Source: a virus (taxonomy: Duplodnaviria > Caudoviricetes). From it: DNA of 26,476 nucleotides. The position numbers and the translations under genes are program-made. The notes under the pieces were generated by a model. The model did not search any database. It was not told the origin of the DNA and saw nothing but the letters and a program-made list of their open reading frames with translations. The stretch is taken from positions 1 through 26,476 of the IMG/VR virus record IMGVR_UViG_3300022876_000113; one strand, 5' to 3'. Positions 2,777 through 11,149 of the stretch are shown here, one piece after another; position 1 is the first letter of the stretch, and every line of letters starts with the position of its first letter.

Positions 2777-3259
2777 ATGCAGTCCATCACCCCACCCCAC
2801 ACCCTCGCCACCTTCATCGGGCCCGCCTCGATCGATGGACCGGCGCATTTCGTGCCCTTGGCCGGCGTGCGCGCTCGGCTTGGATTTCCCTCGCCCGCCG
2901 ATGACTTCATGGACGAGTCGATCGACCTTCACCGGCTGCTGGTCCGCAATCCGTCCGCCACGTTCCTATACCGCGCCGATGGCTGGTCGATGCTGGGCGT
3001 GGGCATCAGCGACGGCGATATCTTGGTGATCGACCGCTCTGTGACGCCGCAGGGCGGCGACCTGGTCATCGCGGTCTGGGATGGCAACCAGCCAACCTGC
3101 AAGGTGCTCAAGACCTTCGAACACCACCTCGAGCTCCACTCGGCCAATCCCGAGTTTCCTCCCATCGTCCTGGACCAAGGGACGGAGGTGGAGGTCTTCG
3201 CGGTGGTGGGCGTGGTGCGCCAGATTCAGCGGAGGCGCGGCCATGTTCGGCCTCGTTGA
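2777..3259 (+). CDS. umuD: UmuD-like S24 autopeptidase (Pol V subunit)
   Basis: GFPSPA, GWSM (catalytic Ser), GDILVIDRS, TCK (catalytic Lys); overlaps umuC start. Confidence 0.9.
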   Translation: MQSITPPHTLATFIGPASIDGPAHFVPLAGVRARLGFPSPADDFMDESIDLHRLLVRNPSATFLYRADGWSMLGVGISDGDILVIDRSVTPQGGDLVIAVWDGNQPTCKVLKTFEHHLELHSANPEFPPIVLDQGTEVEVFAVVGVVRQIQRRRGHVRPR

Positions 3260-4493
3260 CGGCAACAACTTCTACGCCAGCTGCGAACGCGTGTTCCAGC
3301 CGAAGCTGCGCGGCGCCCCCTTGGTGGTGTTGAGCAACAACGATGGCTGCGCCATCGCTCGCTCGGCCGAGGCCAAGGCACTGGGCATCAAGATGGGTCA
3401 GCCGGCCCACGAACTGAAGCACCTGGTGCGGCGGCACGGACTGCAGATGCGATCGGCGAACTTCGGCCTCTACGGCGACATGAGCGCTCGGGTCGTTTCC
3501 ATCTTGAGGGAGGCAGCGCCACGCGTGGAGGTCTACAGCATCGATGAGAGCTTCATCGACCTGACAGGCGTACCCCGACGCGAGGCCTTCGCACAAGAGC
3601 TACGCACCAGGGTGCACCGCTGGACCGGTATACCGAACTGCATCGGCATCGGCCCGACAAAGACGCTGGCCAAGCTCGCCAACAAGGCGGCGAAGACCGG
3701 CACGGGCGTGGTGGATCTCGGCGAACGGGCGGCCCGTGATGCACTGCTGCCCAGGTTTCCAGTCGAAGACCTATGGGGCGTCGGCCGGCGCTTGGCGCCG
3801 AAGTTGGTGGCGATGGGGATCCGCACCGCGGCCGACCTCCGGGATGCGCCAGCGGACGACATCCTCGCCAAGTTCGGGGTGACCTTGGCGCGCACGCAGC
3901 GCGAGCTCCAAGGCCACCCGTGCATGGAACTGGAGGAAGTGGAGCCCGATCGGCAGCAGATCATGGTGAGCCGCTCGTTCGCTGACCGGGTGCACGACCA
4001 CGAGGCCGTGGCCCAGGCACTGGCAACCTTCGCCGTGCGGGCCTGCGAAAAGCTGCGCGCTCGAGGCCTGGTCGCTTCCGGTCTGTGGATCTTCGCTCAC
4101 TCCGACACCTTCCGCCCGGAGTTGCCTCAGCACGCCGCCAACAGGACGATAGCTCTGCCGGCAGCGACCAGCGACACCATGCTGGTGCTGGGGATGGTTC
4201 GCCGCATGCTTCGCGGACTGCTGCAGGAAGGCATTGGGTACAAGAAGGCAGGTGTCGCCCTGCTCGATCTAGCGCGACCCGAGGACGTTCAGCAGGACCT
4301 GTTCGCGCCGGCAGTCGCCGGCGACCAGAGGCTCATGGATACGCTCGATCAGATCAACCGGAAATTCGGCCGCGGCGTGGCCGGGCTGGGCGCTTCGGGC
4401 TGGAAGGACAAGCCCGCATGGGGAATGCGGCAGCACATGCTTTCGGCGAGGTTTACGACCTCGGTACACGAGCTTCCCCGTGTGACTTGCTAA
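3243..4493 (+). CDS. umuC: UmuC-like Y-family DNA polymerase
   Basis: LVDGNNFYASCE, VLSNNDGC, YSIDESF, SRSF and C-terminal WxMRQxxLS motifs; 416 aa. Confidence 0.95.
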   Translation: MFGLVDGNNFYASCERVFQPKLRGAPLVVLSNNDGCAIARSAEAKALGIKMGQPAHELKHLVRRHGLQMRSANFGLYGDMSARVVSILREAAPRVEVYSIDESFIDLTGVPRREAFAQELRTRVHRWTGIPNCIGIGPTKTLAKLANKAAKTGTGVVDLGERAARDALLPRFPVEDLWGVGRRLAPKLVAMGIRTAADLRDAPADDILAKFGVTLARTQRELQGHPCMELEEVEPDRQQIMVSRSFADRVHDHEAVAQALATFAVRACEKLRARGLVASGLWIFAHSDTFRPELPQHAANRTIALPAATSDTMLVLGMVRRMLRGLLQEGIGYKKAGVALLDLARPEDVQQDLFAPAVAGDQRLMDTLDQINRKFGRGVAGLGASGWKDKPAWGMRQHMLSARFTTSVHELPRVTC

Positions 4494-4528
4494 TCGGCAC
4501 CAGCACAGGAGTCGAAGACACGTTGAGT

Positions 4529-4557
4529 ACCCCGCCAGCACTAGCTGGCGGGGTTTT
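4529..4557. terminator. Intrinsic terminator between convergent umuC and KilA-N genes
   Basis: ACCCCGCCAGC-ACTA-GCTGGCGGGGT then TTT. Confidence 0.8.
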
Positions 4558-4562
4558 GAGCT

Positions 4563-5357
4563 TTAAGCGGCCGGAGCGATCACGCCGCCAGGGGATGAAA
4601 GAAGCATCCGGTCCAAGAACGGAAGCGCAGAGGGATCACGCTCTCGGAAGTACTTATGCGAGCGGTTCGGCAGCCAAACTTCGTTGAAGTGAAGGCGGAA
4701 CTCGTGGAGGTATCCAATGGGATACAGGATTGCATCAACCACGCGTCCGTCTTCGTAGTGGTGCTTATAGCGGGGCAGCGAATGGGTATCCACCCCCTTT
4801 GATCGCATCCACTTGGCGAACATCTGGCCCTGCGAAATGTCCGGCACCATGTTTTCGGGCAGCGTGTAGCCTTTGGACTCCAACGGCGCGATCAGGTTCA
4901 AAGTAAGCTCGTTGAGCACCGAAAAGTGCGTGTAGGGCACCCGGTCGCGATTGGCCAAATACCGCTGGATGTGATGCGGGAGCGGAGCCGCAGGTGCGCC
5001 GCCAGGTTGCTTCCCGGAGAGCCATTCACGCACCCATCGGCTAACAGCAACCGCAAATTTCGGTGAAAGCCACTGGGCCAAGTGGATCGCCAAGTCAGGA
5101 TGCACCCAAGTTCCTTGGGGCTCGCTCCCACCCTTAACTGATTGAATCAATTGCGATATGGGAATTCCCATATCGGTCGAAAGCTCTTCCAGAAAAGCTA
5201 CCGTGCTGGAGTTGCGCCTATAGTCTGCGAAGAGCTTGCCCACTGCCTGACACATGGCGGTGGCATTGATGTAGCCATCCACCTTCCGCTGCTCGACAAG
5301 AGTGTTGTCGACCTGACGATGGATCAGTTGCAGAGAAAGCTGTTTACTGCTGTGCAT
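4563..5357 (-). CDS. KilA-N domain protein with BstA-like C-terminal domain (putative abortive infection protein)
   Basis: KilA-N motifs DGYINATAMC and GTWVHPDLAIHLAQWLSPKF; C-terminal FSVLNE, VPDISQG, YxHxY, YP..L.EFR..F...WLP; ATG 5357 with AAGGA SD; 264 aa. KilA-N call is firm, BstA call is from recall. Confidence 0.8.
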   Translation of the reverse strand: MHSSKQLSLQLIHRQVDNTLVEQRKVDGYINATAMCQAVGKLFADYRRNSSTVAFLEELSTDMGIPISQLIQSVKGGSEPQGTWVHPDLAIHLAQWLSPKFAVAVSRWVREWLSGKQPGGAPAAPLPHHIQRYLANRDRVPYTHFSVLNELTLNLIAPLESKGYTLPENMVPDISQGQMFAKWMRSKGVDTHSLPRYKHHYEDGRVVDAILYPIGYLHEFRLHFNEVWLPNRSHKYFRERDPSALPFLDRMLLSSPGGVIAPAA

Positions 5358-5437
5358 AGCGAATTTCCTTTTAGGAAATACACGGCACGGCGTCACAAAA
5401 AATCTGTCATGGGCTCACAAAGCTGACCGTTGTCGCA

Positions 5438-5466
5438 TTGACACAATTGCCAGATGTTGACACCAT
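5438..5466 (+). promoter_or_regulatory. Predicted sigma70 promoter for antisense RNA
   Basis: TTGACA (5438-5443), 17-bp spacer ending TGA, CACCAT (5461-5466). Confidence 0.45.
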
Positions 5467-5472
5467 TTCAGT

Positions 5473-5572
5473 GGTTACTCGATCCGCAAGAACGAGCTGT
5501 ACGCCAATACCGTGGTACTGCAAGTGACCCCTATGCCCTGCCTAGCGCCAACTAGGTGGGGCATTGTTTTTT
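5473..5572 (+). ncRNA. Predicted ~100-nt cis-antisense RNA to the KilA-N/BstA-like leader
   Basis: Promoter-like element, no coding gene, two CGCCAA-loop hairpins, the second followed by a T tract; 5' end estimated. Confidence 0.5.
5533..5572 (+). terminator. Intrinsic terminator hairpin with CGCCAA loop
   Basis: ATGCCCTGCCTAG-CGCCAA-CTAGGTGGGGCAT (13 bp including 2 G-U pairs) then TGTTTTTT. Confidence 0.75.
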
Positions 5573-5604
5573 GGGGCGCGGATGGACATCCATCCGACGA
5601 CCAC

Positions 5605-5633
5605 AAGGTAGTGGGGGTACTAGGCGTCGTCAA
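5605..5633 (-). promoter_or_regulatory. Predicted sigma70 promoter of the KilA-N/BstA-like gene
   Basis: Minus strand TTGACG-17 bp-TACCTT, ~250 bp upstream of the ATG. Confidence 0.6.
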
Positions 5634-5831
5634 CGCCATTTGTAGTGAATTTCCCTAATCCCTTGCGGCGCAAGGACCGCAGGTAAAGGGCGTCCGACAA
5701 GCGGTCTGGACCTGTCGAAACTGATTGCGCAGTCAAGGCAGAACGTGCAAATACACGGCCTCAGAACTGGAACTCCTACCGTCACGCGAAGCTAACATCT
5801 TGGGGAGAAAGCACCGGCGGCAATGTATGCA

Positions 5832-6221
5832 TCAGTCGGCTGCTTGGGAGCAATGAGTGGTGGCCGACCGCGATGCGAGGAACGTCCGCCCCGCCAATTC
5901 GATATAAGAACGCGCCAGACACCTGCCCGGCACCGACCAGCGGCCCTCATCATCGCGTTCCACATCCCAATCCGGGCCGGCCAGCGTTTCATCCAGTCGA
6001 TGAGGCTTTCTCGCCGTCCGATAGATGGCGTCGGCAACGGCCTCCATTTCGGAGCCAAACCACCGGTAGCCATTGACGCAGATCGCCACGGGGTGATCGG
6101 AGGGATGGGGATAGCTGGGCACCAACTCCTGCAGCTGCCGCGCGGCCTCTCGGACGGTAATCTGGCGAAAATCCGGGGCGGCCGCCCAATGGTCGAGAAT
6201 TCTCTCGGCGCCGGGCGTCAT
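5832..6221 (-). CDS. Hypothetical protein (129 aa)
   Basis: ATG 6221 preceded by AAGGAG; divergent from phage SRAP. Confidence 0.65.
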   Translation of the reverse strand: MTPGAERILDHWAAAPDFRQITVREAARQLQELVPSYPHPSDHPVAICVNGYRWFGSEMEAVADAIYRTARKPHRLDETLAGPDWDVERDDEGRWSVPGRCLARSYIELAGRTFLASRSATTHCSQAAD

Positions 6222-6317
6222 GGCGATCTCCTTCACTGGCCGGGCATCGGATAATCACGCGGGACCGGTCAAAGTGATGCGAAAGAAGCGTCCCTGACTG
6301 GGGCACGGGATCACACA

Positions 6318-6983
6318 ATGTGCGGCCGATTCGTCCAGACCCCGATCCGAAACGCTGACACCCTGGGCTTCCCCCAGCTGGTCGGCGACCTCATGTCGAT
6401 CCCTGAAAGCTACAACCTGGCGCCGACGCAGCGCGCGTCCGTGATCCTCGATCGCGGCACCGGCCTCCAGGTCACCCGCTTGGCGTGGGGCCTGCTCCCC
6501 TTCTGGGCCAAGGCCAAGAAGCTGCAGGGCTCCACGATCAATGCCCGCATCGAGACGGTGGCCACCAAGCCGGCCTTCCGGTCGGCGTTCAAGAAGCGCC
6601 GCTGCCTGATCCCCATGGCCGGCTACTACGAGTGGTCGGTCAACACCCAAGACAAAAAGAAGGATCCGTGGTTCATCCACGCGACCGGGCCGCTGCTGGC
6701 GGCCGGCCTGTGGGAAGACACCAGCCCCCTGCTCGACCCGGACAACCTGGGCACCTTCACCGTGATCACCGGCGACAGCAGTGGTGTGTCTGCCGATATC
6801 CACGACCGCATGCCGGTGTGGCTGACGGCCGGCCAGGCCGATGAGTGGCTGGCGGCCGAGCCCGACGACGCGATGGCGATGCTGCTGGCCAGCGAGCCAC
6901 CGGCGATGGAGGCCTATCGCGTCAGCCGGGCGGTAAACACGCCTCGGAACAACCGCGAGGAACTGCTGCTGCAGGTCGAATGA
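6318..6983 (+). CDS. SOS response-associated peptidase (SRAP, YedK/HMCES-like), phage copy
   Basis: MCGRF, YNLAPTQ, WGLLPFW, INARIET, RRCLIP, YYEW, IHDRMPV. Confidence 0.95.
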   Translation: MCGRFVQTPIRNADTLGFPQLVGDLMSIPESYNLAPTQRASVILDRGTGLQVTRLAWGLLPFWAKAKKLQGSTINARIETVATKPAFRSAFKKRRCLIPMAGYYEWSVNTQDKKKDPWFIHATGPLLAAGLWEDTSPLLDPDNLGTFTVITGDSSGVSADIHDRMPVWLTAGQADEWLAAEPDDAMAMLLASEPPAMEAYRVSRAVNTPRNNREELLLQVE

Positions 6984-7811: not shown

Positions 7812-10004
7812 CTATGACTGAATTTTGAGGTTGAAGGCGACGCACCAGTTGTGCATCGGATACGGCTTATCGACGAGTGCCGCGATGTTCGCTTCCGGAT
7901 ACTGACCGCTTCCTGCCTGATACACGTATCGATCAGGTGCAACGAAGCTATCGCTATCACGGAGACATCCATTGCCATCGTGGTACGTCTTGTCGGCGTA
8001 GCGGAGGTATGCAACTCCGACCAGGTCACGCGAAAGGGTCAGCTCCACGATCGTGTCGAAAACAATCCGAACGCCACTGACTGGAACGACGCCAATTGAA
8101 TCGCGCACCGTGAAGCCCTTATCGGCGAAATCGGTCGGCGTGTACGACAGATACGGCTTGTCGAACGCAAGCGGCGGCTCTGGCACATGGAAGTCGATGC
8201 TGATCTTCCTGCCCGCCACCGCGACATTGCGAGGAGACAACGGCCTCCAACCTTGACGAAGCTCCAGAACCTTGTAGGCCACTTTTGCAGCCATGTTGGC
8301 CCACCATCGATAGCCATTCGAGTCCAAGTGGCCGTTCGCAGTGGGGCTGGTGTGCTTGTCCGTGTAGGGATACACCGGCCCGACCAGGTAGACGTCGCTG
8401 TTCTCTTCGCTGAATTCAAGCTGGGCTTGGCCAACCGCCAATGCCGTGTCCATCCCATTGCCGTCGGAGGTGAAACTTGCACCGGTCTGGTACATCAGCA
8501 TGACCGGTGGCAGAGGCTGCGCAGCCACACCGGCCGCAACATCTACCTTGAAGTCCGACCAAAGCTGAGCCAGTGCAGCCTTGTGGGCCTGCCTGGTGCT
8601 GCTGGGGTAGTCGTTCTCTCCCTGCAGCCACACAAGCGCCCCGACGCCATAGGTTTTCCCCTCGGATGAGGCATTCGCCTTGGCAGCCTGTGAGTGCCCC
8701 ACCAGGACGTTCCAGATGTTCGGGCTCGCTCCCTTTGTCAGCTGTGCAATCGTTCGCCCACCAACCCCGCTGCTGCTGGCCACGAACGAAATGGAATCAT
8801 CCATCACGCCCTTCCGCAGGTTGTGTAGCTTCTTCAGAGAGTTGACCAGGCCCTCGGCGACCGTCTCGCCAAATGCTCCATTCCCCGGAGGAAGCGCAGC
8901 CACCTCGGCGTCTGTAAGCACGGCCATGCTCGTGCTCATCACATTGGCGACAAGCGGCTGGAACGCGCTGTTGCCGCCCACAGGGGCGAACGACGCTGAC
9001 CCAATGCTGGCCTGCCTGACCGAACCACCCACCATCACGTTGTTGTATGGCTGCGTTTTACTGAGGGCCGGCCACCCCTCAGTGCCATTGCTGAGGCTCT
9101 GGCCATATACGGCAAAGTGCGTGTAGTCGTAGCCTACCGGGGTGGATACGCTGTTTATCTGGGACGCTATACCGCGCGCAGCGTCCAGGTTGGACGCGTT
9201 GCGCGCTCCGTACAGCGATGCATCGTCACTCGCCGAGACCACGCCTTCAGGGGTCACCAGCTCGACGACATACCCATCGTCATCCTGGATCGAGAGCGAG
9301 GTATTCAACCCGACGGAAGAGGCATCCCGGACCAATCCGGCAACACCATTGGGGTCAACTACGTCGACGAAATACCCATCGGCGTCCACGAGGCTGAATG
9401 CACCAGTAGTTCCGATCAGACTTGAATTCGCGAGCATCACCGTCTTGAGGTCGATGATTCCTTCACTCAGCCCCTTGTCCGTGTATCCATCCTCGTCCGC
9501 GAAGCTGATCTCATAAGGAACATCGAGAGCCACCGTTCGAACAGTGTTGTCGAGTTTCGTGTCCAGAGTCTCGACTTCGCTACGGTCAGCCTTATCAAGC
9601 AGGATGTCTCCGCGCAGCCACTCCCATCCTTGTGCCGCAACAGACCTGCGCACGAACCTGCCATAGTTAGGAACGACCTGCCCTCCCGGCTTAATCGGAT
9701 CGACGTGCGAACCAGAGTCGGTTGTCATTGAAATATCGGCCTGTGCGCCGATTGGCTGGCTAATCCCAGGCTCAACCGAGATTAGTCGCGCCCACGTCGA
9801 TTCTCCGATTGCCCCGCCAGCTTGACCCGCCTTAAGCGCTTCCACATCTGCAGGAAGACCGGAAGCGTCGATCTGACCATCCACGAAAACTCCCAGCACA
9901 GACGCCGGCGCCTGCGCGTTGCGCCCGGCCTCAATAACCGCAAGTTGTGTGCTGCTCCCGATCTGACCAATGGCCGGATACTGGCTGAGCTCTTTCTCTG
10001 CCAC
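7812..10004 (-). CDS. Tail spike/fibre-like protein with SGNH (sialate O-acetylesterase-type) domain
   Basis: 730 aa, GTG start with GGAAAGGGG SD; YGQSL, GVGG, WLQGEND and GHL motifs. Confidence 0.75.
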   Translation of the reverse strand: MAEKELSQYPAIGQIGSSTQLAVIEAGRNAQAPASVLGVFVDGQIDASGLPADVEALKAGQAGGAIGESTWARLISVEPGISQPIGAQADISMTTDSGSHVDPIKPGGQVVPNYGRFVRRSVAAQGWEWLRGDILLDKADRSEVETLDTKLDNTVRTVALDVPYEISFADEDGYTDKGLSEGIIDLKTVMLANSSLIGTTGAFSLVDADGYFVDVVDPNGVAGLVRDASSVGLNTSLSIQDDDGYVVELVTPEGVVSASDDASLYGARNASNLDAARGIASQINSVSTPVGYDYTHFAVYGQSLSNGTEGWPALSKTQPYNNVMVGGSVRQASIGSASFAPVGGNSAFQPLVANVMSTSMAVLTDAEVAALPPGNGAFGETVAEGLVNSLKKLHNLRKGVMDDSISFVASSSGVGGRTIAQLTKGASPNIWNVLVGHSQAAKANASSEGKTYGVGALVWLQGENDYPSSTRQAHKAALAQLWSDFKVDVAAGVAAQPLPPVMLMYQTGASFTSDGNGMDTALAVGQAQLEFSEENSDVYLVGPVYPYTDKHTSPTANGHLDSNGYRWWANMAAKVAYKVLELRQGWRPLSPRNVAVAGRKISIDFHVPEPPLAFDKPYLSYTPTDFADKGFTVRDSIGVVPVSGVRIVFDTIVELTLSRDLVGVAYLRYADKTYHDGNGCLRDSDSFVAPDRYVYQAGSGQYPEANIAALVDKPYPMHNWCVAFNLKIQS

Positions 10005-10007
10005 GGT

Positions 10008-10170
10008 TTACCCCTTTCCGATGAGTTGATAGCCGTCATGGCCAAGAAGCAGCGCTCCGTCGTCGCCGACCAGCAGCTGCAGGTAGTTGGTGCTGTCGAA
10101 TTCGAACGGCTCGTCCGTTTCGTAGGTGCGGAACTCCAGGGCCACGCCGGCGGCCGACGGCACCCACTGA
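10008..10170 (-). pseudogene. 3' remnant of a baseplate-region gene (DUF2612-like by position)
   Basis: Start-less frame QWVPSAAGVALEFRTYETDEPFEFDS...LIGKG-stop ending 3 bp before the spike start. Confidence 0.5.
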
Positions 10171-10339
10171 CCGGCACGGCGAAAGCACCGTGCGTGTCGA
10201 TGCCGGCGGCCTTCGCATCGTAGATCGCTTGGGCAATCTCCACGTCCAGCCCGCCTTCGGCGATGACATGAACCGAGTGCGGCGGCCGGCGTGACATATC
10301 CGTGTAGTCGCCGGTGTTCTCGTAGGCAACCACGTTGGT
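10171..10339 (-). pseudogene. Internal fragment of a baseplate J-like gene
   Basis: TNVVAYENTGDYTDMSRRPPHSVHVIAEGGLDVEIAQAIYDAKAAGIDTHG resembles baseplate J/gp47 proteins. Confidence 0.75.
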
Positions 10340-11149
10340 CATGCGGTTGAGGTCGGCGGCAGTGTGCTTCTCAGGCCACAGGGCCTCGCCGTCCTCCGAC
10401 AGCGCCTCGAAGCAGACGTGCTCCCACACCTCACCATTGCCACCCGGTCGCGGTTCTTCGCCGGGCTTGCGGCCCAGGAGCCAGCCGGCCAGGTCCCGCT
10501 CGTGCAGGCGCTGCATGATCACGATGATCGGCGTGTCCGCGCTGTTCACGCGGGACTGCAGCGTGTTGTTGAACCAGTCCAGCACGCCCTGGCGGACCGT
10601 GTCGCTGTCGGCCTCGCCCGGCTTGTGCGGGTCATCGATGATGATCGCGCCGCCGAAGCCGGGCCGAGCCTTGCCCGCGCCGAAGCCGGTCACAGTGCCC
10701 TCGGCACCGGTGGCATAGACCACCCCGCCCTTGGTTGTCCGCCAGTCGCCCTTGGCGCTGCTGTCCTTGCGCAGCTCGACCTCGGGGAAGATCTCCCCGT
10801 AGACCTCGTGCTGCACCAGCTCGCGGGTATTGGCGCTGTTGTTCAGGGCCAGTGGTGCGGCATAGCTGATGTGGATGAACTCGGAGTCGGGCACCTTGCC
10901 CAGGCACCAGGACATCCAGTTCACGACCGCCAGCTCGGTCTTCGAATACCGCGGCGGCAGGTTGATCACCAGGCGCTTGCACTCGCCCCGATAGACCCGG
11001 TCCAAGGCCGCGCACAGAGGGGCATGGTGCTTGGCCCGCATCCACTGGAAGCCCTTCTTCCGCAGGAACGTGTAGCGGCTGTAGAAGTAGAAGTCCTCCC
11101 GCGCCAGCTCGGCCGCAACCAGCTTTTGCTGAGCGGTCAGCTCGCCCAC
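10340..11149 (-). pseudogene. terL: Terminase large subunit, ATPase domain only (nuclease domain deleted)
   Basis: Walker A INLPPRYSKT, Walker B IIIDDP, IMQRLH; similarity stops after LWPEKHTAADLNRM. Confidence 0.9.

Follow-up and report, generated by a model that had tools for sequence, protein, structure and literature searches.

Our best reading of the DNA in front of a BstA-family gene in a virus record is that the leader of its mRNA contains a predicted cis-antisense RNA gene with a plasmid-style recognition loop and that the promoter driving this leader is, by homology, a captured ribonucleotide-reductase (RNR) promoter with predicted NrdR-type boxes. The parts are of known kinds; the combination of an antisense leader with a captured RNR promoter appears to be undescribed. 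We refer to the whole stretch of DNA analyzed, positions 1 to 26,476 of this 26.5-kb record, as the window.

The virus record that contains the gene has an integrase at one of its ends, in agreement with the prophage association of bstA. An earlier note on this DNA had described the gene as BstA-like, and family searches bear this out: the 264-aa protein matched KilA-N in Pfam (1.7e-25), the BstA model of PADLOC over residues 126-240 (2e-18), and PHROG 6287, BstA, over residues 3-241 (2.3e-61), and it combines a KilA-N domain with a BstA-type C-terminal part. Its nearest named relatives (68-76% identity) come from Stenotrophomonas and Xanthomonas, from which we infer that the host family of the prophage is Xanthomonadaceae; a genome search at the family level returned few further close homologues (3/400). 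The neighbors of the gene (4563..5357) are umuDC on one side and a SRAP gene on the other. A location downstream of the cI repressor is common, not universal, for bstA; here, the gene upstream is instead a 134-aa ORF without a family match, whereas in one relative (L088) the bstA-family gene does come after a repressor-like ORF. The 134-aa ORF (5832-6236, minus strand) had no match in Pfam, PHROG, NCBIfam, or PADLOC. Flanking the cassette are two SRAP genes and a umuDC-type pair (775-1716, 2780-4493, and 6318-6983); three tRNA genes lie close by, at the end of the prophage. A terminase-like ORF (9782-11149, minus strand) seems to be fused to tail-type sequence, which suggests a large deletion or an assembly join in the structural region.

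The features of the gene, its leader, and its promoter region are as follows (window positions).

4563..5357, minus strand: BstA-family gene, 264 aa, with KilA-N and a BstA-type C-terminal part (Pfam, PADLOC, PHROG).
5363..5379, minus strand: 7-bp hairpin holding a Shine-Dalgarno (SD)-like AGGA, from leader folding.
5381..5397, minus strand: segment b, predicted by constrained folding to pair with segment a (open) or across the start codon (closed).
5438..5466, plus strand: predicted antisense promoter, TTGACA (5438-5443), 17 nt, CACCAT (5461-5466); relatives have a near-consensus TTGACA-16-TATGAT in this position.
5473..5572, plus strand: predicted antisense RNA of about 100 nt, from promoter-to-terminator geometry; fold z, -2.6; no Rfam family.
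5498..5514, minus strand: segment a, in which the second UUGGCG lies; pairs with segment b over 16 bp in the predicted MFE and centroid folds (leader z, -3.6).
5533..5572, plus strand: antisense terminator hairpin with U tail; 6-nt recognition-type loop, CGCCAA on the antisense RNA and UUGGCG on the mRNA.
5579..5596, minus strand: 5'-terminal mRNA hairpin, a predicted stabilizer; 12/12 close leaders have a predicted 5' hairpin, though its sequence differs among them.
5594..5739, minus strand: copy of a host nrd promoter region, 87.8% over 148 bp to L292; the block stands before RNR genes at 27 loci.
5601..5616, minus strand: predicted NrdR-type box 2, overlapping the -10 at a distance of 32 bp from box 1; 17/18 phage-borne copies retain C4, and 17/18 retain G13.
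5605..5633, minus strand: mRNA promoter, TTGACG (5633-5628), 17 nt, TACCTT (5610-5605); predicted start near 5598; conserved in 12/12 close leaders.
5633..5648, minus strand: predicted NrdR-type box 1, touching the -35; C4 and G13 kept in 18/18 phage-borne copies.

The outline drawn in the earlier note held up on several counts. A minus-strand TTGACG-17-TACCTT promoter (5633-5605) precedes a leader of 241 nt, close to the ~240 nt proposed and devoid of any SD-bearing upstream ORF (uORF), and the plus-strand TTGACA-17-CACCAT element lies inside it at 5438-5466, where it had been placed. The two promoters are convergent and 170 bp apart. A terminator scan found the 13-bp hairpin (5533-5564) with its T tail, delimiting the ~100 nt described, and the hairpin is more stable on the plus strand (-21.6 versus -17.8 kcal/mol), the strand that its stem had been said to favor. 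The antisense -10 of the window (CACCAT) is weak, and a strict consensus promoter scan of the window found no promoter, with neither element passing by itself; support for both promoters is comparative and does not come from a consensus scan. The antisense unit (promoter at 5438-5466, terminator at 5533-5572) exceeds chance, and we consider it probable that an antisense RNA is made from the leader. A search of the window and 16 related loci against Rfam at the gathering score returned no family except tRNAs and one unrelated RNA; NsiR1 (23.5 bits against a cut-off of 39) was rejected as a generic terminator match. Short direct repeats surround the antisense -35 (14 nt with a spacing of 22, at 5386-5421, and 11 nt with a spacing of 19, at 5438-5467). 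A TTTGTGAC-like word near the antisense -35 is seen again in relatives; a regulator of the antisense promoter could act there.

Does the antisense RNA carry two recognition loops? The earlier note had proposed two hairpins with the same CGCCAA loop. Both CGCCAA words are present (5502 and 5546), as is the 13-bp hairpin, but the other hairpin, GTA-CGCCAA-TAC at 5499-5510, amounts to a 3-bp stem that is absent from both the MFE and the centroid folds of the predicted antisense RNA. The chance of a second CGCCAA within those 60 nt is about 0.02; the loop hexamer is repeated in 0/11 close relatives, and the second CGCCAA is absent from 11/11. With the stem unformed in the predicted folds and the hexamer unrepeated among the 11 relatives, we rejected the twin loops. 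Our folding models instead place the second CGCCAA in one strand of a long-range helix of the mRNA, a helix predicted to hold the start codon open.

Eleven related leaders share the mRNA promoter, the 5' hairpin, an A-run with the same hairpin stem, and the antisense promoter; the sequence between these shared elements falls into three groups that are barely alignable. Six relatives have an antisense promoter close to consensus (TTGACA-16-TATGAT or TATTAT). Covariation of the loop hairpin, which the earlier note had envisaged, was looked for in these close leaders and did not appear. Among 10 close sequences, the terminator stem hardly varies: two changes are one-sided and preserve a pair on the antisense strand, and no two-sided compensatory change was seen. 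The 6-nt loop is variable, occurring in both orientations. The UUGGCG that the mRNA had been said to show is present here on the 13-bp hairpin, but because the loop is inverted between close relatives it is an unfixed feature. In a hairpin pattern search, 3 of the 12 matches (L162, L164, and L168) were unrelated terminators. A-run hairpins with the same loop type were also seen upstream of unrelated phage ORFs (L256-L263) and may belong to a general mobile-gene leader.

How far does the layout extend within the family? Of 252 homologue hits in 255 loci, 191 were distinct and 185 of those came with full upstream sequence; we collapsed these to 128 leaders that share fewer than ten 12-mers, that of the window being one of the 128. 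A reverse terminator 90-300 nt upstream was present in 29/128 of these nonredundant leaders versus 9/238 other genes of the same loci, and a reverse terminator with an antisense promoter score of at least 6 was present in 20/128 versus 3/238 (Fisher p about 1e-7; the promoter matrix was built on approximate frequencies). By the strict filter, the layout was missing in 99/128 leaders. The predicted antisense RNAs across the family are mostly 65-110 nt long and end upstream of the ribosome site. A GUU-N3/4-GC loop motif, on either strand, was found in 10/29 of their hairpins and in 0/28 ordinary terminators (p 8e-4, for a motif picked after the loops had been viewed). It lies on the antisense strand in eight cases and on the mRNA in two, the window included; a U-turn motif may sit on either partner (PMC4485353). 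A quick protein tree requires 18 changes to account for the 29 positives, compared to 26.5 if shuffled. The positives are dispersed among Xanthomonadaceae, alpha- and betaproteobacterial, and Bacillota branches; a mainly enterobacterial branch has 1/14. These comparisons indicate that the antisense-leader architecture on BstA-family genes is real and conserved well beyond the window locus. It would define an unannotated set of small RNAs (about 65-160 nt) with a shared layout and loop motif; because their sequences cannot be aligned, family searches miss them.

What would the antisense RNA do to translation? In the predicted fold of the mRNA leader (z, -3.6), segments a (5514-5498) and b (5397-5381) form the 16-bp helix just upstream of the 7-bp SD hairpin. 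When the antisense-covered region was held unpaired in constrained folding, b paired across the start codon and the opening cost rose from 11.2 to 15.4 kcal/mol. An antisense RNA over segment a is predicted by this model to close translation. Covering the antisense region raised the opening cost of the start region in 23/25 leaders, a raw result that precedes the shuffle and control tests. In those tests, the native segment opened the start region better than its own shuffles did in 21/24 leaders, and the opening z was below -2 in 12/24 leaders, some of which are kin, versus 1/48 control genes (p 4e-7; 48 of 106 control genes tested, with 20 shuffles each). Left out of the original 29 were L008, L026, and L069 (off geometry), L070 (miscalled start), and L047. 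Taken alone, the window leader did not differ significantly from its own shuffles (z -1.2, p 0.17).

Cognate a:b helices beat noncognate ones (p 0.002, confounded by GC content; individually p < 0.05 in 4/25), and of 25 leaders, 16 versus 7 had the stronger a:b duplex on the mRNA strand (p 0.014), so that RNA is favored over DNA. The five leaders with other cargo (described below) gave three results in agreement, one flat, and one opposite. The leader of L057, a Lachnospiraceae homologue with a perfect antisense promoter upstream of 4001, also switches in the opposite direction; its covered segment is itself the anti-SD, and an antisense RNA would therefore activate rather than repress. Overall, the folding data make a translational refolding switch in the leader somewhat more likely than not.

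We then compared this arrangement with known antisense systems. CopA/CopT exerts control via a translationally coupled leader peptide and has a plasmid replication initiator as its target, and in Inc RNA/repZ (IncI) the target loop pairs with a complement near the ribosome site to form a pseudoknot. The window leader resembles both in its predicted antisense RNA of about 100 nt, its 6-nt loop, the stem bulged on the mRNA strand, and the UUGGCG/CGCCAA-type loop. A CopA-type U-turn recognition loop on a bulged stem is predicted, with UUGG in the mRNA loop and a 2x2 internal loop on the mRNA strand. The leader differs from CopA/CopT in having no leader peptide, no Rfam match, and a BstA-like target in place of a replication initiator: the window has no SD-bearing uORF, and none ending at the start codon is conserved among the 12 close leaders. 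It differs from IncI in lacking a conserved pseudoknot partner and in having a loop that occurs in both orientations among relatives; the window contains a 4-base complement, full complements are absent from 12/12 close leaders, and 5-base complements are scattered in 4. Of the plasmid-style switch proposed earlier, the antisense gene in the leader and its recognition loop stand as the likeliest interpretation, but we found no support for the twin loops or for CopA/tap or IncI-type mechanics.

A closer parallel is the counter-transcribed RNA (ctRNA) of repABC in Rhizobium etli p42d, which is encoded in the leader ahead of the ribosome site; when it binds, the mRNA refolds, and without the ctRNA the SD and start codon are open (PMC3155836). 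Here too, the predicted counter-transcript lies upstream of the SD and the leader goes from open to closed, by folding that for the window alone is not significant. The repABC ctRNA targets RepC, and its closed state is an intrinsic terminator, whereas a sense-strand terminator-like site was found in 1/26 of our leaders and not in that of the window, which also has no Rfam match. The window leader is predicted from these models to work like the repABC ctRNA, at the level of translation, unlike CopA/tap or the IncI pseudoknot.

On the promoter side, a chromosomal ATP-cone RNR gene (L292) has a promoter that shares 87.8% identity over 148 bp with the window promoter region and is nearer to it than any phage copy is. 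The same block stands in front of RNR genes at 27 loci, and for this reason contigs from three runs, whose type is unrecorded, match 5594-5743 and then diverge. Promoter pattern searches returned 14 viral loci and 29/401 genomes. The 18 phage-borne copies comprise 7 found by a pattern covering box 1, for which box 1 conservation is circular, and 11 found by protein homology; column conservation across the 18 is 0.92 for box 1, 0.82 for box 2, and 0.54 for the spacer. One central base of box 2 in the window is unlike the host copy. Tandem boxes at a spacing of 31-32 bp characterize NrdR sites (PMC2892513); within the boxes, G-C pairs separated by nine bases are conserved, and NrdR binds at high dATP (PMC9110341). 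The window has this operator geometry, with two boxes 32 bp apart that overlap the promoter and a conserved C and G nine bases apart, and nrdR was present in 5/5 related genomes checked. The likeness to the NrdR operators of RNR operons thus lies in two imperfect palindromes 32 bp apart at the -35 and -10 of a homologous promoter (PMC9110341, PMC2892513, PMC4409342); the difference is that the window copy drives a phage accessory gene and not an RNR operon, with binding predicted. In Pseudomonas aeruginosa, the nucleotide response via NrdR was left inconclusive (PMC4409342). In Streptococcus pneumoniae, a distant host, no host gene set was induced more strongly during lytic infection than the NrdR regulon (PMC6755750).

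With a noncircular matrix built from host box 2 only, the window pair scored 1.6 and several chance pairs scored higher. Nor was there a clear family-wide enrichment with this matrix (3/128 versus 1/210 at a score of at least 4; 12/128 versus 18/210 at a score of at least 2), and an earlier enrichment of 5/128 versus 0/210, which was partly circular, did not survive it. Because the box-2-only matrix singles out neither the window pair nor the family, the NrdR claim is based on geometry and homology, and we make it for the Xanthomonadaceae branch. Since the box positions are conserved while the spacer drifts, the NrdR input seems to have been kept, and we lean toward NrdR control of the captured promoter being still functional. 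Among distant bstA homologues, NrdR-like boxes upstream of 4001 (L073) and 2516 (L014) scored above all controls with an independent matrix and remain leads; those upstream of 2501 (L241 and L231) and 849 (L078) scored high only with a partly circular matrix.

The captured promoter and its antisense leader also occur with other cargo. About 9 to 10 loci, near-duplicates included (L264-L267, L270, L271, L273, L275, L276, and L286), have the same promoter and antisense leader in front of a 140-aa gene that lies at the SRAP-umuC site, about 300 nt downstream of the promoter match. Its matches to the Ant family are weak (E, 0.001-0.08), and one homologue is named a KilAC-domain protein. From these gene neighborhoods, the SRAP-umuC site is a cargo hot spot in Stenotrophomonas-type prophages. 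A strong antisense promoter (score of at least 9.2) follows the captured promoter in 17/17 cargo copies, some of them near-duplicates, versus 0/27 RNR copies (maximum, 6.5). Two Xanthomonas-type chromosomes have a promoter, antisense leader, and 43-aa ORF inserted before an RNR gene. In these (L303:686-1555 and L305:654-1522), the native nrd promoter is separated from the RNR gene by the antisense leader, the 43-aa ORF, a terminator, and a second boxed promoter, and the 43-aa ORF has paired YCR/FLVRC-type motifs.

How does the locus compare to BstA systems that have been studied? BTP1 BstA is likewise prophage-borne, with KilA-N and a conserved C-terminal domain (PMC8585504, PMC7067206). BTP1 bstA is cotranscribed with cI (PMC7067206), over an 88-bp gap, and tested BstA is constitutive in lysogens and controlled by aba, a DNA element at the bstA 5' end that spans the start codon and has terminal hexamer repeats (PMC8585504). 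The window gene, in contrast, has its own promoter, a 241-nt leader, and a position at the prophage end beside SRAP-umuC. A hexamer direct repeat across the start codon was absent from the window, a comparison of little power since aba sequences are homologue specific. The tested BstA proteins, being constitutive and DNA controlled, can do without an RNA switch; the main text of PMC8585504 never uses the word antisense. Tha/ith of Staphylococcus aureus prophages is similar in that an antisense arrangement on a prophage defense gene avoids autoimmunity, with antisense transcription contributing to control, and different in that its antisense unit encodes an inhibitor protein, whereas that of the window is a predicted noncoding leader RNA (PMC11087260). 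Our literature search, in which coverage of subscription journals was thin, returned no account of BstA or KilA-N with an antisense RNA and none of NrdR with a prophage, defense, or an antirepressor.

The explanation that we favor, with chances that we put at about even, is that the BstA gene lies behind a dNTP-sensing promoter and a threshold set by the leader antisense RNA. By analogy with known systems, NrdR would repress the captured promoter when dATP is plentiful, and a steady supply of antisense RNA would set a threshold for residual mRNA, with loop-loop kissing at the terminator loop as the first contact. The folding predicts that, with antisense RNA on a, b would pair across the start codon and translation initiation would close; without it, a would pair with b, leaving only the weak 7-bp hairpin at the ribosome site. 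Low dNTP would lift NrdR repression, mRNA would outnumber antisense RNA, and BstA would be made. The purpose may be to turn on an abortive-infection protein when replicating phage DNA drains dNTPs; a rise in prophage copy number would give more antisense RNA and so damp BstA.

The antisense layout and the refolding data would apply equally to a sensor of antitoxin decay, the trigger put forward in the earlier note, in which an unstable antisense RNA keeps a stable mRNA silent until host shut-off releases it, with the nrd promoter merely convenient. Type I toxin-antitoxin systems likewise pair an unstable antisense RNA with a stable toxin mRNA; the 5'-terminal hairpin predicted in all 12 close leaders is as expected of a stable mRNA. 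However, conserved box positions in a drifting promoter spacer suggest that NrdR input has been kept, and BstA is not reported to be toxic in the absence of phage (PMC8585504). We regard a decay sensor as unlikely and place the dNTP trigger ahead of host shut-off or antitoxin decay. Polymerase collision between the convergent promoters could also damp bstA, in which case the RNA would be incidental and the hairpin would only stop it. The 170-bp spacing, the partial control of Tha prophage defense by such means (PMC11087260), and a terminator loop that varies and flips freely would all suit this, but interference leaves unexplained both the recurrent loop motif (10/29 versus 0/28) and the segment-specific opening of the start region, and we find it quite improbable.

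A different possibility is that regulation is as described and the cargo is a phage regulator, antirepressor-like, which ties prophage induction or replication to dNTP stress. Sister phages carry the 140-aa KilA-C/Ant-like gene with the same promoter and antisense leader at the SRAP-umuC site, and the window gene, unlike tested bstA genes, is not behind cI. Against this, the protein has a full-length BstA PHROG match and a C-terminal PADLOC BstA match, and the other cargo matches Ant only weakly; a regulator has, in our estimate, a small chance. Finally, the hairpin and repeats could be DNA sites, either an aba-like self-immunity element or an operator, with no regulatory RNA, given that aba is itself a DNA element with terminal hexamer repeats at the bstA 5' end (PMC8585504) and that the window's hexamer is repeated 44 bp apart. 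Yet that repeat is unconserved (0/11) and sits 145-195 bp ahead of the start codon, which is spanned by aba but by no hexamer repeat here; moreover, hairpin energies favor one strand in 22/26 leaders (two hairpins miscalled). We judge DNA sites to be very improbable.

Under the favored dNTP-threshold explanation, what would the locus mean? The BstA trigger and prophage escape are stated as open questions in PMC8585504, where a cellular stimulus is suggested over a phage molecule. For one BstA branch, the locus offers a concrete answer: nucleotide-pool sensing via host NrdR, sharpened by an antisense RNA. Only tentatively would we go on to propose a Xanthomonadaceae alarm for dNTP drain, built as a reusable cassette with swappable cargo, with antisense leaders as a second RNA layer across much of the BstA family. 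If so, an abortive-infection protein would be translated only when an invader's DNA replication empties the dATP pool, and the prophage's own amplification would raise antisense RNA and mute BstA. Plasmid-type antisense control and the NrdR regulon would then extend to antiphage defense.

Some hints of expression were found in four soil RNA libraries, in each of which one contig spans the bstA-family gene and its leader; the runs were picked for holding the stretch and possibly belong to one campaign. Two of these contigs stop at 4555/4561 and 6226/6227 and a third stops at 6235, with no loose ends, and contigs of other runs continue past these ends. As contigs carry no strand, start, or level, they are a weak hint of transcription. 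A contig from run X20 joins 4441 to 6874, skipping the bstA block, with 24 letters on its short side, and may be another locus. Because the RNA-library contigs (about 4555-6230) extend past the promoter, read-through from the 134-aa ORF into the BstA gene is possible; they bridge the 134-aa ORF and the bstA gene and stop near the start of the 134-aa ORF.
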